Below are positions 3,880 to 10,073 of a DNA stretch of 10,073 nt, piece by piece. How positions within the stretch are numbered: the stretch's first letter is position 1; each line of letters opens with the position of its first letter. The DNA is taken from positions 1 to 10,073 of the forward strand of contig JAHQWW010000133.1 in the NCBI GenBank assembly GCA_029856365.1. Direction: 5' to 3'. This DNA comes from Candidatus Hodarchaeota archaeon. GTDB taxonomy: Archaea > Asgardarchaeota > Heimdallarchaeia > Hodarchaeales > Hodarchaeaceae. The translations under genes were made by a program, and so were the position numbers. Under the pieces are notes generated by a model. The model was not told where the DNA came from. It worked only from the letters and a program-made list of their open reading frames with translations, and did no database searches.

Positions 3880-5037
3880 TCAGACTGTTAGAGAAGATAA
3901 ATCTTTAGGAGAATCTGTTAATATCTCATAACTATCCTCGGTAACAAGAACCGTGTCTGAGTGGCGCATTCCACCAAATTCTGGAATATAGATGCCTGGT
4001 TCTACTGAAAAAATGTGTCCTGGTTCTAAAACTGTTGGATCTTCTTCTTTTAAGGAAGGTCGTTCATGGAGTTCCAACCCGATTCCGTGTCCTGAACGAT
4101 GGATGAAGTATTTCCCAAATCCGGCTTTATTAATGATTCCCCTAGCGATTTTATCAAGCTCAGAAACCTTAATTCCAGGTTTAATAGCATTTATTGTGGC
4201 CTGTTGCGCTGTACATATTACTTCAAACATCTTTTCCTGTTTCTGTGATGCTTCCCCTATAATGAATGTTCTTTCACATTCTCCATGATATCCACCAAGT
4301 GATACGACACGTGTATGAATTACAGAGTCCCCCTCTTGGAGTCTTCGAGATGTGGAAAAGACATGAGGAAGAGCACTTCTAATTGGACCAGAAGGGCTCA
4401 TATTAACGGTAAAACGTAATACAGACTCAGGATAGTCAATACTACTACGTTTCAATATGGCATTATTCCCTATAGTATCTAATTGGATTTCTGTTAGTCC
4501 TTCTTTTGCTTCTTCAATAGTTCTAGAAACTCCATAAGTAGCTAGTTCTGCAGCTCGCCTGATTGCTTCAATCTCATCACTGGATTTAACCATTCTTAGC
4601 TGCTCAATTATTTCAGAACTATCTGAAAACGCTGCTTTGGGGAAAATTCTCTTTAATAGGGAAATGGAAGAAAGAGAACAAAAATTCTCTTCAATTCCGA
4701 TATGCTCCTGATGGAGTCCATGAGTTTCTACTATTTGTTTCATTATTTGAAATGGATCAGTTTCTTTCTGTTCTTCGCCTTCCTCTAAAGAAAATTCGAC
4801 ATAAGAGCGGATATCCTTTATTACTGATTCTTTTTTCGCATGTTCTTCATCAAGAGCAGGAACAATCAATGTGGGTTCTTGTTCCAAAGGGAAAATAATG
4901 ATTATAGGTCTAGAGTAGGTCAAGGCAAAAAATGTACTCAAATAGACGGTATGGGGGGGGTGCCAAGTTATGAGAACATTGATAGCTTTTTCTTGCATCA
5001 AGCCTTTGATTTTACTCCATCGTTTCATATAATTCAA
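3880..5037 (-). CDS. M24 (Xaa-Pro peptidase/creatinase) family hydrolase with a non-canonical metal site
   Basis: Creatinase-type N-domain (VYLS.F...YSRP...LIVPALD...IGIE), LRMVKSSDEI linker, LPH, ERT, HRSGHGIGLELHERP, SVEPGIY, GMRHSDTVLV. Start probably TTG 5037 (AGATGA 7 nt upstream) or ATG 5028, not 5139, which would overlap the upstream gene. Confidence 0.85.
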   Translation of the reverse strand: MNYMKRWSKIKGLMQEKAINVLITWHPPHTVYLSTFFALTYSRPIIIIFPLEQEPTLIVPALDEEHAKKESVIKDIRSYVEFSLEEGEEQKETDPFQIMKQIVETHGLHQEHIGIEENFCSLSSISLLKRIFPKAAFSDSSEIIEQLRMVKSSDEIEAIRRAAELATYGVSRTIEEAKEGLTEIQLDTIGNNAILKRSSIDYPESVLRFTVNMSPSGPIRSALPHVFSTSRRLQEGDSVIHTRVVSLGGYHGECERTFIIGEASQKQEKMFEVICTAQQATINAIKPGIKVSELDKIARGIINKAGFGKYFIHRSGHGIGLELHERPSLKEEDPTVLEPGHIFSVEPGIYIPEFGGMRHSDTVLVTEDSYEILTDSPKDLSSLTV

Positions 5038-5092
5038 TCTGAAATCATCTTTTTTGAGTGTATTGCTAAAATAAAGACTTTGGAAAATAAGG

Positions 5093-5815
5093 TTAGGGTA
5101 GATTATCAATATCCAGATATTTCTTATCATGGGGAGCAATAATTATATCAGCGATGTCTTGAATTTTCCTTACCGAGTCATATGCTTGAAGGGCATTAAT
5201 ATGTATTCCTGGTGCTATCGCTACTACTCCCATATCTTTCATCTGCTGCGGGGGGTCATAATTCTCCTGGATTGAACACAAACCGCTGATACAGACCTTT
5301 CCTTTATCAGTTTCAACCAGAACACTTTGATTACCTGGTGTATGGCCAGGTGTCTTGATAATTTTGACTCCTGGGACAATCTCTTTGTCGCCATCAACAA
5401 CCTCTAGTTTTGTTTCCTCTGGGGGAATAATAAACCACCCTGTTTGTGTTGGATGAGGATTTTTGGCATATTCTAATTCATCTTTTTGAACAAATACCGT
5501 TGCATTCTTGTATTTGGCAATATCCGCTGCATGGTCAGTGTGAAGATGTGTTAAAATTAAAATATCAATGTCTTCCACTGACAACCCGATTTTTTCTAAA
5601 GCTTCCTCTTGTGTTTGGCCATCAATCCCTGGGAAGCCAGTACTTCTAATTAATTCACCTGAACAGCCAGTATCAACTAAAATGTTTTTATCAGCGCCTT
5701 TTATTAACCAAGAATAAACTCCTAAAGTGATCTCTGTACCATGACCCATTAAATAAGTCATAAACCCCATATCAATTGGGGATTCTGTAGCAATTGGTAA
5801 TGGAATAATATTCAT
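5093..5815 (-). CDS. N-acyl homoserine lactonase-like MBL-fold hydrolase
   Basis: ILVDTG, THLHTDH (HxHxDH), VQKDEL, TPGHTPGNQSV, IIAPHD. GAAGGAG at 5830-5824 is better spaced for ATG 5815 than for ATG 5821. Confidence 0.85.
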   Translation of the reverse strand: MNIIPLPIATESPIDMGFMTYLMGHGTEITLGVYSWLIKGADKNILVDTGCSGELIRSTGFPGIDGQTQEEALEKIGLSVEDIDILILTHLHTDHAADIAKYKNATVFVQKDELEYAKNPHPTQTGWFIIPPEETKLEVVDGDKEIVPGVKIIKTPGHTPGNQSVLVETDKGKVCISGLCSIQENYDPPQQMKDMGVVAIAPGIHINALQAYDSVRKIQDIADIIIAPHDKKYLDIDNLP

Positions 5816-5821
5816 TATCAT

Positions 5822-6023: not shown

Positions 6024-6809
6024 ATGATAGAGATAAAAAAACTAAAAACGGTTGAAGAGTTCAAACAAACCTTCGAAATTCAAAAGAGCGCTTGGGGGAT
6101 TAGTGATTTAGAAATAGACCCTCATTTTTTAATGAGTAGAGTTCAAAAATATGGTGGCTTACTTCAGGGCCTTTTTATAGATACAAAATGTGTTGGTTTC
6201 ACTTATGGTATTCTTGGAAAATGGCAGGGAGAGATCTTTTTTTTCTCCTATATGGCAGCAGTGATGAGAGAACACCAAGGACAAGGATTTGGATTTCTAT
6301 TAAAAAAAGCTCAAAGAGAAGAAGTCCTAAAGATGGATTATAATATCATTCGGTGGAATTTTGACCCACTAGAATCCTTAAATGCTTATTTTAATTTTCA
6401 TAGGCTGGGAGTAATCAGCTCAGAATATGAAAGGAACATTTACGGAGTGGGGGATAGCGGACTTGACAAAGGTCTCCCAACCGACAGATTACTTGTCACC
6501 TGGAATTTAACCTCTAAACGAGTGATCAAAAAAATGGAAAAAAAAGAATCAAAGATTATAGAAATGATTCCTACGTCAAAAATAGGGAGCTTTAAAGACA
6601 AAATTGCTTATATCGAAATCCCTAGAGATATCCGTTCTTTGAAAAAGAATAATTTAAATCAAGCATATGAATGGAGAGTGAAGACACGTGAAAAATTTGA
6701 GTCCGCTTTTAGAAGTGGATTTGTTGCTGAAAAAATCGTTTTTTCAGAGGATCAACAGAGAATCTTCTATAAATTAACCAAAAAGGATGATGATGTTGAA
6801 TCGGATTAA
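6024..6809 (+). CDS. GNAT-family N-acyltransferase (COG3375-like), putative succinyl-CoA:D-amino acid N-succinyltransferase
   Basis: AV..EHQGQGFGFLLK..QR acyl-CoA-binding motif A, WNFDPL...NAYFNFHRLG, IYG....LDKGLPTDRLLVTW, IEIP.DI..L.....A.EWR; overlaps the start of the NSAR/OSBS gene as in the Geobacillus-type operon. Confidence 0.85.
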   Translation: MIEIKKLKTVEEFKQTFEIQKSAWGISDLEIDPHFLMSRVQKYGGLLQGLFIDTKCVGFTYGILGKWQGEIFFFSYMAAVMREHQGQGFGFLLKKAQREEVLKMDYNIIRWNFDPLESLNAYFNFHRLGVISSEYERNIYGVGDSGLDKGLPTDRLLVTWNLTSKRVIKKMEKKESKIIEMIPTSKIGSFKDKIAYIEIPRDIRSLKKNNLNQAYEWRVKTREKFESAFRSGFVAEKIVFSEDQQRIFYKLTKKDDDVESD

Positions 6810-7920
6810 TCATATCGACTCTATGGAATTATTCATTGTTAAGCTCCCTCTTGTGGAACCTTTCGAGACTAGCTTTGCAATTGAGACCCACAAGGAAGCT
6901 CTTCTATTGAAGATAAGCTCTGAAGGAATAGATGGCTGGGGTGAATGTGTCGCTTCTCCAGATCCCTATTACAGTAGTGAAACTAACGAAACTGCCCTTC
7001 ATATAATTCGAGCTTTTTTACTACCATTAATTATAAAGATGAAGAATTTCTCACTTCAAGAGGTACTAGAAGAGTTCGAGAGGATCAGGGGTCATAATAT
7101 GGCTAAAGCAACTGTAGAAAATGCTCTTCTTGATCTTCTAGCTAGAAAACAAAATCTTCCTCTATACGAACTAATTGGTGGAGAAAAAAAAAGGATTATG
7201 TCAGGTATTAGTATTGGGATAAAAAAGAACCCTGATGAACTTCTAGAGTCCATTAAAAAAGCATTAAGCAAACAATATCATAGGATCAAAATTAAAATAA
7301 GAAAAGGAAGGGAAATTGAACCTTTAACCAGAGTGCGAGAGAATTTTCCAGATATCAAACTCATGGTAGATGCCAATGCTGATTATTCCATTTCAGATAT
7401 CGAAATACTCAAACAACTCGATGATTATGATCTAATGATGATCGAACAACCATTAGAATACGATGACCTCTATTTTCATTCATTAGTTCAGAAAGAATTA
7501 CAAACACCGATTTGTCTTGATGAATCAATTGAGAATCTCAACGATGTTAAAACTGCTATTAATTTGGGAAGTTGCCGAATCATTAATATTAAACAAGGAC
7601 GTGTAGGGGGTATTTTGAATGCAAAAGTCATTCAAGATTATTGCAGGAATAATGGTATAAAAGTCTGGTCTGGAGGTATGTTAGAAACGGGAATCGGAAG
7701 AGCGTTTAACATTCATTTACAAACGCTCCCTGGCTTTCTACTACCAGGTGATACTTCTGAAACTTCCCGCTATTTTCAAGAGGATATTGTTGAACCTCCA
7801 GTAACACTTCAAACAGATGGGTTTATTGATATACCTGAAGGTGATGGAATAGGGGTACGAGTCATCCCAGACAGATTGACACGCTTCACAGCTTTTTCTG
7901 AAAAGATAGAATATAAATGA
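6793..7920 (+). CDS. menC: N-succinylamino acid racemase / o-succinylbenzoate synthase (NSAR/OSBS; enolase superfamily)
   Basis: PFETSF, GWGECVA...PYYSSET, RGHNMAKA, KIKI (KxK), MVDAN, IEQP, CLDES, INIKQGRVGG, WSGGMLETGIGRA, LPGDTS.TSRYF. Start is one of ATG 6787/6790/6793; AAGGA at 6783-87 favours 6793. Confidence 0.92.
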   Translation: MLNRINHIDSMELFIVKLPLVEPFETSFAIETHKEALLLKISSEGIDGWGECVASPDPYYSSETNETALHIIRAFLLPLIIKMKNFSLQEVLEEFERIRGHNMAKATVENALLDLLARKQNLPLYELIGGEKKRIMSGISIGIKKNPDELLESIKKALSKQYHRIKIKIRKGREIEPLTRVRENFPDIKLMVDANADYSISDIEILKQLDDYDLMMIEQPLEYDDLYFHSLVQKELQTPICLDESIENLNDVKTAINLGSCRIINIKQGRVGGILNAKVIQDYCRNNGIKVWSGGMLETGIGRAFNIHLQTLPGFLLPGDTSETSRYFQEDIVEPPVTLQTDGFIDIPEGDGIGVRVIPDRLTRFTAFSEKIEYK

Positions 7921-7922
7921 CT

Positions 7923-9281
7923 CTATGTATCAAGATATTTTATACCTGCTTTACCCCAAGAATCTAATGCTTGTTGTAATTCTACGTATTCATCCTCGTG
8001 GTCATCTAAGTAATCTTCAAGATCCTCAGCTGCTTCATCTAAGTGAGTCATGCCAATATCAATGACCTGACGAAAAGCTTTGGCTCCTGCTCGTGTACCC
8101 TTTGGATGGGAATGAATTCCGACACCTGCTCCAATCATAATGTCTTTACCCAAATCTTTCATAATACGTAATGCAATTCCTGGAGTTACTCCTCCAGATG
8201 GCATGGGGAGTACTGGTTTTAACGGTCCAAAAGGATAACGGAGTGCTTTAGTACAGGCAAGATATTTGTCCCGAATAAAAGGAGCTTTACTGTATGCACT
8301 GGGATAAACAAGCGCGTCAAGACCAGCTAATCGGGCAAGTTTTCCCATGACCAGAAAAGAAGAAATACCAGACATTGCAGACTCATAATATACTCCAGCA
8401 AAGTCCATGTGTCCTAAAATAGGAACATTAATACTCTCATCAGCAGCTATCTCCCGAACAACAGGAAGACCAACAGTGAGATAATTGACCATCAACCCAT
8501 TAGTACCGCAATCGATCGCTTTTTGAGCATTCTCTAGAATCTTGTGAGGGCCTGCTGTTATATTCACCATATAAATGGTGTCTTCTCCAGTTTCATCTTT
8601 AGCTTTATCCCGCATCTCCATGTAAGCAGTTACTCGATCCTCCAATGGCAAATATTTAATGTCTCCTGCTGTACTTTCATCATCCTTGATGAAGTCAGCG
8701 CCACCCATTGCTGCTTCGTAGAATAAAGCCTTCCCATCATCCAAAGTGTACGCATGATCAATATTTGTTAAGAAAGGTCTGTCAGGAACTTTCAAACGAT
8801 TACGAATGCCTTCTATGCCAAGTTTCGGCCCTTTAAATTCAGCTAGGAAAGTAGAGGGGAAAATGACATCGAGAAGTTTTATTTTCCCTCCCATACTGAT
8901 ATTGCCCATTAGAGTTGTTAAAAGCAGAGGAAATTGCGTATCTAACCCCTCAAGGGGATAAGCTATCTGAATGATGTATTCTCGTTCTTTCACACCATCA
9001 GGAATCCCAATTTCGTAAGGGGGTATTTCATAAACTCCTATGACCTTACCAGAAAACTTGCGAAGGATTTCTTTGGGATCTGAATGCACAGGATAATAAG
9101 ATCCAACAGTTTGCTCTTGTATAACCACCTTTCCCATGTACCAAGGATCTAGAGTGCTACTAAATGCAGCATAATAAATCCCAATAACATAATTATCTGA
9201 GTCGATACTCTCCTGCACTCCTTCGGGGTAATATCCCCATTTTTCATCCGCATAACTATCAAACTTTGGTCTTTTGGTCAT
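7923..9281 (-). CDS. RuBisCO-like protein (form IV RLP) with a divergent active site
   Basis: EQTVGS, IAYP, LMGNIS, KLLDV.FP, FKGPKLGIEGIR, GGADFIKDDE, YMVNIT, ILGHMDFAG, GKLARLAGLD, PMPSGG, GAGVGIHSHP.G..AGAKAFRQ, AL..WG. Lacks R295 (H-M instead of H-R) and H327 of bona fide RuBisCO. Confidence 0.93.
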   Translation of the reverse strand: MTKRPKFDSYADEKWGYYPEGVQESIDSDNYVIGIYYAAFSSTLDPWYMGKVVIQEQTVGSYYPVHSDPKEILRKFSGKVIGVYEIPPYEIGIPDGVKEREYIIQIAYPLEGLDTQFPLLLTTLMGNISMGGKIKLLDVIFPSTFLAEFKGPKLGIEGIRNRLKVPDRPFLTNIDHAYTLDDGKALFYEAAMGGADFIKDDESTAGDIKYLPLEDRVTAYMEMRDKAKDETGEDTIYMVNITAGPHKILENAQKAIDCGTNGLMVNYLTVGLPVVREIAADESINVPILGHMDFAGVYYESAMSGISSFLVMGKLARLAGLDALVYPSAYSKAPFIRDKYLACTKALRYPFGPLKPVLPMPSGGVTPGIALRIMKDLGKDIMIGAGVGIHSHPKGTRAGAKAFRQVIDIGMTHLDEAAEDLEDYLDDHEDEYVELQQALDSWGKAGIKYLDT

Positions 9282-9344
9282 TAAACGAGCCTCACTCTTT
9301 TATCCTAATTTATATTAAATAATATTGGTTATGTGTTCATTCTT

Positions 9345-9356
9345 TTTTATATAAAA
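9345..9356. promoter_or_regulatory. Palindromic TATA-like box between divergent RLP and DsrE-like genes
   Basis: TTTTATATAAAA is a perfect 12-bp palindrome matching the archaeal TTTA(A/T)ATA consensus on both strands. Confidence 0.35.
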
Positions 9357-9473
9357 TAGAACAGCTATTCTCTAGTACAATCTATAAGAAGTTTTATACT
9401 GTGTATTTTACTAATATTTGATAGAATCAATCCCATTAATCCAAGAAATATGAAAATATAAAGGTGACATCTC

Positions 9474-9587
9474 ATGAAAAAACAGCTTTTTGTCCTTTTT
9501 AATAATAATAAAGGCATTTTCACACATATTCTCTTGAATGTTTTTGATTTAGCCCAAAAAGGCTATGAAGTTGGTGTTGTCTTCGAA
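9474..9587 (+). CDS. 5' fragment (38 codons) of a DsrE-like/sulfur-relay-fold small protein, cut at the junction
   Basis: AGGTGA SD at 9462-67; MKKQLFVLF...FTHILLNVFDLAQKGYEVGVVFE resembles the DsrE N-terminal beta-alpha-beta unit, normally continuing E-G. After E38 the frame (open to 9881) is merely antisense of dctP. Confidence 0.6.
9579..9587. other. Sequence junction between low-GC and high-GC DNA
   Basis: Hand counts: 9481-9540 = 16/60 GC, 9601-9660 = 33/60, 9661-9720 = 36/60; genes on both sides lose family similarity at GTCTTCGAA. Confidence 0.85.
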
Positions 9588-9947
9588 CATGTAGGGAAGC
9601 ATCAGGGCATCCAGGCGCGGCGCATACTGGGTAATCAGGTTGATACTGGTCACGAAGCAATCGAGCGCACCGGAAACGATAAGGTCCGCCATTACGGAGT
9701 CGTTCCCGAGCTGAGCGTTGGGATAGATCTCCGCCTGGATGCGGCCGTCGGAGTACTCCTCAATCAATTCCTCGAACACCATACCAGTCACATGCAGAGC
9801 GGAGTTATCCGCCGCCATGTTGGAATGGCCGATCCTCAAATTGAAGGTTTCCTGCGAAGCTGGTTGCCCGCCGGCCCATAGGCTCAGGGAGCCCACAAGC
9901 AGCATAAGGGCAGCGAACAGTACGAGCACAGTCTTAGTTTTGCCCAT
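9579..9947 (-). CDS. dctP: 5' fragment (about 123 codons) of a TRAP transporter substrate-binding protein, DctP family
   Basis: Signal peptide ending SLWAGGQ, then LRIGHS...FEELIEEYSDGRIQAEIYPNAQLG.D......SGALD......P.LDALMLPYMFED. Full DctP proteins are about 330 aa; here the frame runs into AT-rich DNA and stops at 9549. AAGGAGGT SD at 9960-9953. Confidence 0.88.
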
Positions 9948-9986
9948 TTCGTACCTCCTTGAAATGATAGTTACATAAGGGAAAAA

Positions 9987-10016
9987 ATTATAACCTTACT
10001 GATTTTCTTGTGTCAA
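9987..10016 (-). promoter_or_regulatory. Consensus sigma70 promoter for dctP
   Basis: TTGACA (10016-10011) - 18 nt - TATAAT (9992-9987), with an A/T-rich UP-like tract upstream; 39 nt between the -10 box and the ATG. Confidence 0.8.
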
Positions 10017-10021
10017 GAAAA
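10003..10021. promoter_or_regulatory. Perfect inverted repeat over the -35 box, candidate repressor operator
   Basis: TTTTCTTG-TGT-CAAGAAAA (8-3-8). Confidence 0.45.
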
Positions 10022-10073
10022 AACCCACCACATTACTCAGATTTATCCTAATCGGCTATTCGGATCAGAAGCG

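Follow-up and report, generated by a model that had tools for sequence, protein, structure and literature searches.

The window analyzed here is an entire 10,073-bp contig (C168) from the metagenome-assembled genome (MAG) of a Candidatus Hodarchaeota archaeon (4.24 Mb, 84% complete). The gene of interest lies on the reverse strand at 7923–9281 and encodes a RuBisCO-like protein (RLP), P0001, in which a histidine stands at the position of RuBisCO Lys175. The open frame translates to 452 amino acids without interruption. P0001 belongs to the RuBisCO large-subunit superfamily based on its Pfam domains (PF00016, 112.4 bits with a cut-off of 30.1; PF02788, 21.8 bits with a cut-off of 20.7), its N-domain and TIM-barrel fold, and a KDDE metal site. 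The AlphaFold2 model has a pLDDT of 93.2 and a pTM of 0.91. A Foldseek search with this model returns MtnW structures first (top match 2oem, TM 0.91 by target), and TM values to RLP and RuBisCO structures are 0.8–0.9. By sequence, the nearest solved structures are the MtnW/YkrW RLPs (3fk4, 2oek, and 4nas; E about 1e-66), which rank above the IV-Photo RLPs and form III RuBisCOs. The NCBIfam equivalogs for MtnW, form III, OiaX, and form II all score P0001 far below their cut-offs. A homodimer is expected from homology.

Characterized members of this superfamily all stabilize a Mg2+-bound enolate or enediolate made by proton abstraction. Lys175 contacts O2/C2 of this intermediate and serves as an acid, and the P1 phosphate is held by T65, W66, G381, G403, and G404. 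We assigned residue equivalences by HMMER alignment to MtnW of Geobacillus kaustophilus (2oek), using spinach RuBisCO numbering, and by MAFFT alignments. The latter covered 120 homologues, the genome's own form III RuBisCO, and 149 cluster representatives. All residues given below are encoded on the reverse strand. K199-D200-D201-E202 (8676–8687) corresponds to the carbamylated Lys and the Mg2+ ligands (K201, D203, and E204). Also kept are the equivalents of E60 (E56), Asn123 (Asn127 in the motif MGN, 8901–8903, which aligns on MtnW Lys98), His294 (His291 in the motif GHMD, 8409–8411), loop-6 Lys334 (Lys332 in the motif SAYSK, 8286–8288), S379-G380-G381 (S362-G363-G364 in the motif PSGG, 8190–8198, with Ser changed to Ala in some members of its clade), and G403 (G386).

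Other elements are changed. In E56-Q-T-V-G-S61-Y62 (9096–9116), on the N-domain side of the P1 pocket, Ser replaces T65 and Tyr replaces W66, and in G386-V387-G388 (8118–8126) Val replaces G404. At the end of barrel strand beta1, in R168-PFLTNID-H176-AYT (RPFLTNIDHAYT, residues 168–179, 8745–8780), His176 (8754–8756) aligns on MtnW Lys147, the Lys175 equivalent. Immediately past it, all of the MAFFT alignments place a 3-residue deletion that removes the P-C/K-x of IKPCxG. In the AlphaFold2 model, strand 170–175 ends before His176, and the shortened loop is followed by helix 180–192.

K177, R295 (Met292 follows His291), and H327 are also missing from P0001. The sister clades likewise lack them (Cys, Met, and Pro/Tyr, respectively), and from the alignments we consider this loss an inherited RLP trait that is not special to the window gene. 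Because K175, K177, R295, and H327 are missing, carboxylation of ribulose 1,5-bisphosphate (RuBP) by P0001 would be excluded. The residue set of bona fide RuBisCO (forms I–III) is broken by H176, the deletion, M292, S61, Y62, and V387. The P1 pocket appears to be reshaped and not abolished, as T65S and W66Y are conservative and Gly386 is invariant in the clade of P0001.

A preliminary description of this DNA, made from the sequence alone, had located several of these motifs, and codon arithmetic places them as it did (KDDE at residues 199–202, nt 8687–8676; GVG at residues 386–388, nt 8126–8118; EQTVGSY at residues 56–62). It listed the carbamate/Mg motif, E60, N123, H294, the loop-6 Lys, and S379-GG as kept, and we find all of these equivalents by alignment. 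It also described the IKP segment as shorter and without a Lys, in agreement with the HMMER and MAFFT alignments. It described the K175/K177 segment as gone; the change of K175 to His with the deletion is indeed specific to the group described next, but the loss of K177 came from the parent clade.

We searched 5.8 billion proteins for homologues and found 21 further clusters at 65–91% identity to P0001, all from Asgard MAGs labeled as Heimdall-, Hod-, or Hermodarchaeota. We compared the resulting His clade (n = 22, including P0001) with a set of 100 sister-clade sequences. All of the clade clusters carry the signature EQ[TS][VI]GS[YF], N-I-[DN]-H with the deletion, and a residue other than Gly at position 387. 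His176 and the 3-residue deletion are present in 22/22 members, whereas all 100 sister sequences have Lys. Ser61 is found throughout the clade (22/22) and Thr throughout the sisters (100/100). Position 62 is Tyr in 20 members and Phe in two, compared to Trp in 100/100 sisters. Position 387, Gly in every sister sequence (100/100), is never Gly in the His clade (Val in 16, Ser in four, and Ala and Thr in one each).

A position-by-position contrast of the two sets shows that fixed differences are few and clustered at active-site elements (T65S, W66Y, M174I, I175D/N, K175H with the deletion, L203S, N211L, A328S/P329A by loop 6, and G404X). K199, D200, E202, H291, K332, E56, and N127 are invariant among the 22 clade sequences; position 201 is Asp in 19 and Asn in three, and position 175 is Asp in 15 and Asn in seven. 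In the same comparison (22 versus 100 sequences) there is no clade-specific conserved Lys or Arg near the motifs that is able to replace Lys175, and K228 is distant in sequence. Pairwise dN/dS values against orthologues are 0.02–0.05, and the His-clade RLP is under strong purifying selection.

To place the substitution in the wider family, we ran a profile search of 1.84 billion representatives clustered at 50% identity and aligned the best 150 with seven reference sequences. At this identity level, the His clade collapses to one full-length cluster and one fragment. The Lys175 position among these best 150 representatives and seven references is Lys in 134, Arg in four, Glu in two, Gly in two, and gapped in 10. 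Among the best 150 representatives, His occurs at this position in this clade only.

When the maximum-likelihood tree is rooted on the form III RuBisCO of the same genome, the His clade comes out as monophyletic (SH-aLRT 100), with a stem of 0.65 substitutions per site. It forms one clade (support 100) with an Asgard group, group B, within an RLP family that is linked to FGGY kinases. An acidic C-terminal insert (E416 to D423 in P0001, 8013–8036, reverse strand) is common to the His clade and group B and is not found in the wider family. Group B sequences (51–55% identity) have EQSTGTW, MIKPC, and GGG without exception. These motifs are also kept in group C (43–50% identity), which includes sequences from Theionarchaea, Baldrarchaeota, Actinomycetota, Chloroflexota, and Caldisericia and from Promethearchaeum syntrophicum MK-D1.

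The source genome encodes three members of the RuBisCO family: a form III RuBisCO in which no residue of the catalytic set is missing (G000:C60:2617-3927, reverse strand), a canonical group-B RLP (G000:C54:4759-6096, reverse strand), and the window gene. We searched 83 genomes of the class Heimdallarchaeia, and matches of at least 66% identity are confined to the window's own GTDB genus, where they occur in 12 of 22 genomes. In this genus, group B is present in 10 of the 12 genomes with the His form and in 7 of the 10 without it. The pattern is one of lineage-specific duplication, then rapid change, then stasis.

The preliminary description had proposed a new RLP subtype, and this proposal is well supported: the signature is present in 22/22 members of a long-stemmed, monophyletic clade with dN/dS of 0.02–0.05, the 21 further clusters share the NIDH/GVG-type signature, and these homologues do not retain IKP and GGG. 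Judged from the sequences, the signature belongs to a distinct conserved RLP subtype and not to a decaying allele or an assembly error.

The parent family provides context for function. In 36 of 48 group C loci, the RLP gene immediately follows an FGGY kinase gene, and genes for class-III or HisC-like aminotransferases or a saccharopine-dehydrogenase-like gene are frequent companions. The kinase resembles xylulokinases (TIGR01312, 358 bits, below the cut-off of 380). The order in these cassettes (L019-L085, e.g., L022:3372-8800 and L032:5110-9300) is an aminotransferase and/or saccharopine-dehydrogenase-like gene, the FGGY kinase, and a canonical-looking RLP. Cassettes with the kinase and RLP occur in Actinomycetota, Chloroflexota, Baldrarchaeota, and others, and many include a TetR regulator. 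The substrate of the parent RLP is most probably a ketose phosphate made by the kinase. By analogy to MtnW, which keeps T65/W66/GGG without the P2 residues, this RLP would hold the phosphate in the P1 pocket. The invariant EQSTGTW/M-I-K-P-C/GGG signature is found in 100/100 parent sequences versus 0/22 in the His clade, and none of the 13 His-clade loci that we examined has a kinase beside the RLP. The source genome has two FGGY kinase cassettes (C204 and C123) with no RLP beside them, so the lack of a kinase next to the window gene says little alone. The canonical group-B paralogue (C54) is likewise unlinked from FGGY kinases. Full-text searches of a limited set of papers returned no account of the His clade or of its FGGY-linked parent.

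Some His-clade loci have other neighbors. A UbiA-family prenyltransferase gene is directly downstream of the RLP gene on the same strand in L002/L003 (18 nt), L015 (39 nt), and L106 (146 nt). A PHP/PHP_C phosphoesterase gene follows the RLP gene in L018 and L107, and UbiA comes after it. The five UbiA-linked loci belong to diverged His-clade members spread over three subclades. The UbiA protein best matches an unnamed archaeal prenyltransferase model and models of DGGGP synthases, in each case with a score under the cut-off. Within the window's genus, a UbiA orthologue is present in 11 of 12 genomes with the His-clade RLP versus 1 of 10 without it, and the PHP gene in 9 of 12 versus 1 of 10. 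The distributions of two window neighbors, used as controls, are unrelated to that of the RLP. We regard the UbiA/PHP link as a lead that depends mainly on repeated adjacency. Three of the PHP orthologues (G058:C1:101478-102134, G062:C9:157783-158439, and G051:C243:9159-9818) have one in-frame TGA within the match, which could be due to alignment past a stop codon, a broken gene, or recoding.

We favor, with a little better than even confidence, the explanation that the His-clade RLP is a functional, neofunctionalized enzyme that derives from duplication of an Asgard RLP, with a catalytic role for His176, a reshaped pocket, and UbiA and PHP partners. The clade very probably catalyzes a reaction so far undescribed for the RuBisCO-like family. 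The enzyme would still bind a carbonyl substrate on Mg2+ and, as is general in the superfamily, abstract a proton to form an enolate or enediolate. His176, on the shortened loop, may take the role of Lys175 in stabilizing or protonating the enolate, either as a proton donor/acceptor or as a hydrogen-bond partner. Asp175 does not seem essential, as it is Asn in 7 of the 22 members. The lower pKa and shorter reach of His would point to a different substrate and probably to a different outcome, namely isomerization or tautomerization and not carboxylation. The reshaped pocket may accommodate either a phosphate in another position or an anionic group of another kind, and the anion end of the substrate would be unlike that of the parent's. 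The likeliest pathway partners would be the DGGGP-synthase-like UbiA prenyltransferase and the PHP phosphoesterase, with no sugar kinase. A full pathway can be drawn only tentatively and is doubtful as a whole: in this undescribed Hodarchaeales-type route, the RLP would enolize or isomerize a small carbonyl compound via its His, PHP would dephosphorylate the product, and UbiA would prenylate it. Dephosphorylation by PHP after the RLP step is modeled on the MtnW/MtnX enolase-phosphatase pair.

Several points weigh against this explanation. In the window and in the closest relatives, the RLP gene stands alone, with convergent or divergent neighbors. In an aEF-2 tree, the genomes without the UbiA and PHP genes sit in at least two clades, and with this single-marker tree the co-occurrence of these genes with the RLP is not separable from shared ancestry. 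The independent contrasts number one on well-supported branches and four on all branches, too few for significance. His176 was positioned relative to the metal by alignment and secondary structure. Phosphate binding could stay unchanged, given that T65S and W66Y are conservative.

The protein could instead be an isozyme that shares both its reaction and its substrate, a ketose phosphate made by the kinase, with the canonical Asgard paralogue. His would then stand in for Lys, and the pocket changes would compensate for each other, for example under another pH, metal, or regulatory regime. The retention of the metal ligands and of the E60, N123, H294, and K334 equivalents is consistent with this, as are the conservative nature of T65S and W66Y and the two FGGY kinase cassettes in the genome that adjoin no RLP. 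However, both paralogues occur together in 10 of 12 genomes, the stem is long, and the changes at four active-site elements were concerted and then frozen. The linkage also shifts from the FGGY kinase to UbiA and PHP, and 134 of the roughly 146 representatives that have data at this position otherwise retain Lys. We therefore consider an isozyme unlikely. The preliminary description proposed a different substrate, perhaps one lacking the P1 phosphate, with His176 and Asp175 as the acid-base pair. We find this reading rather unlikely. An obligatory His/Asp pair sits poorly with a position 175 at which 15 members have Asp and seven have Asn. Three P1-pocket elements are altered together and the kinase is adjacent in 0/13 His-clade loci, as a substrate without this phosphate would predict, but the G403 equivalent (Gly386) is invariant, S/A379 and G380-G381 have their counterparts, the T65S and W66Y substitutions are conservative, and Ser and Tyr can bond phosphate, all of which suggest a pocket that is only reshaped. 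In two loci a PHP phosphoesterase separates the RLP from UbiA, which would be more in keeping with a phosphorylated intermediate. The same description pointed to the lack of an adjacent sugar kinase; the observation is correct, but the argument is weak, since the genome's canonical paralogue is also without an adjoining FGGY kinase.

Loss of catalysis along with Lys175 would make the protein a conserved ligand-binding or regulatory pseudoenzyme. Lys175 is close to invariant across the superfamily, and the IV-Photo RLP of Chlorobaculum tepidum, a possible precedent, is not known to have a demonstrated reaction. We consider this quite improbable, given the invariance of K199, E202, H291, K332, E56, and N127 (n = 22; position 201 is Asp in 19 and Asn in three), the very low dN/dS, and the fact that His is itself a typical catalytic residue. 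The remaining alternative is an artifact, either a decaying allele or a mistake in sequencing or assembly. It gains some plausibility from the far contig end, from about 9587, which is probably a chimeric join. It is refuted by the intact frame, by purifying selection, by the location of the join about 300 nt beyond the gene, and by the occurrence of the signature in 21 independent protein clusters and in 11 species genomes, two closed chromosomes among them.

The His clade is a natural, selected lineage with Lys175 changed to His and the carbamate/Mg2+ machinery kept, and it is a ready-made experiment on the role of Lys175. A new reaction is very likely, in a superfamily with only a handful of known RLP functions. 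The clade is restricted to Hodarchaeales-type Heimdallarchaeia, a lineage currently placed nearest to the eukaryotes, and the repeated prenyltransferase linkage gives a hint of lipid or quinone chemistry particular to this lineage. The parent FGGY kinase and RLP cassette, found in many phyla, is an uncharacterized and testable pathway in its own right.

Upstream of the RLP gene there is an AT-rich divergent intergenic region (9282–9473), with the same arrangement in close relatives. It is followed by the first 38 codons of a conserved divergent gene for a 112-aa DsrE-like protein (9474–9587, forward strand), which is broken by foreign DNA. This stretch is 89% identical to that of the relatives over the 38 codons, and at about 9587 the AT-rich sequence gives way to GC-rich DNA. 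The segment from 9587 to 10073 is foreign and probably due to a chimeric assembly join, about 300 nt outside the RLP gene. The N-terminal part of a DctP-type TRAP solute-binding protein is encoded in the GC-rich end (9549–9947, reverse strand).

The closest relatives have in common with the window only the divergent DsrE-like gene and the convergent genes for an OSBS/NSAR-like protein, its 261-aa partner, and ApgM. In the window, the 261-aa protein and an enolase-superfamily protein are encoded by an overlapping pair at 6024–7920 (forward strand), which is syntenic in close relatives. The enolase-superfamily member passes TIGR01928 (OSBS/NSAR type; 364 bits, cut-off 200.65), and the 261-aa partner has no Pfam or NCBIfam match. 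We rejected this pair as partners of the RLP, as synteny is limited to the closest relatives and the distribution (8 of 22 genomes of the genus) differs from that of the RLP. We also rejected the MBL gene (5093–5821, reverse strand), which is present in 3 of 22 genomes, and ApgM, which adjoins the RLP in some relatives but is a housekeeping phosphoglycerate mutase that scores above the equivalog cut-off. An M24 peptidase frame at 3880–5139 (reverse strand) has a TTG start and a 47-nt overlap with the upstream MBL gene. Its true start is probably further downstream, and the gene of a relative encodes 382–385 aa. Methionine-salvage genes (mtnA/K/X/D and others) were not found near the RLP in the window or in 13 related loci, a search that did not extend to the whole genome.

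Of the known systems, the DK-MTP-1-P enolase MtnW/YkrW is the nearest solved relative of P0001 (32–35% identity, with the same KDDE metal site). The reference proteins are from Geobacillus kaustophilus, Bacillus subtilis, B. cereus, and Alicyclobacillus (PDB 2oek/2oem, 2zvi, 3fk4, and 4nas). Both MtnW and P0001 are without R295 and H327 (the P2 site) and K177. MtnW has Lys98, which Imker and colleagues are said to have found catalytic in 2007, where P0001 has Asn127, and MtnW keeps Lys147, T65/W66, and GGG. The loop-6 Lys is present in P0001 and absent from MtnW. P0001 scores under the cut-offs of the MtnW equivalogs (TIGR03332, 259.2 versus 513.6; NF007095, 311.5 versus 409).

The form III RuBisCOs (Thermococcus kodakarensis, 3a12, and the genome's own on C60) have the same fold as P0001 and share E60, N123, K201/D203/E204, H294, K334, and S379-GG. 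They also have K175, K177, R295, H298, H327, T65/W66, and GGG, whereas P0001 does not have these, scores far under the NCBIfam form III cut-offs, and is not expected to carboxylate RuBP. For OiaX (3-oxo-isoapionate-4-phosphate decarboxylase), P0001 scores 110.7 with an NF042437 cut-off of 700. The FGGY-linked parent family (46–55% identity) resembles the His clade in that K177 is Cys or absent, Met takes the place of R295, and the loop-6 Lys is retained. Its typical neighbors (FGGY kinase, aminotransferases, and saccharopine-dehydrogenase-like gene) are not found next to His-clade genes.

The RLP of a Hakuba actinobacterium (PMC7325909) is Moorella-like and of a different type from the His clade. 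The DeepYkr RLP of Rhodospirillum rubrum is described there as a 5-methylthioribulose-1-phosphate isomerase that links S-adenosylmethionine metabolism to isoprenoid synthesis (Erb et al. 2012, via PMC7325909). It is only distantly related to P0001 (PDB 3qfw, E 6e-25), and it is not known to be linked to UbiA. DeepYkr keeps the Lys175 equivalent, as all KDDH-type representatives in our alignment have Lys. It provides a precedent for an RLP that feeds isoprenoid-related metabolism.

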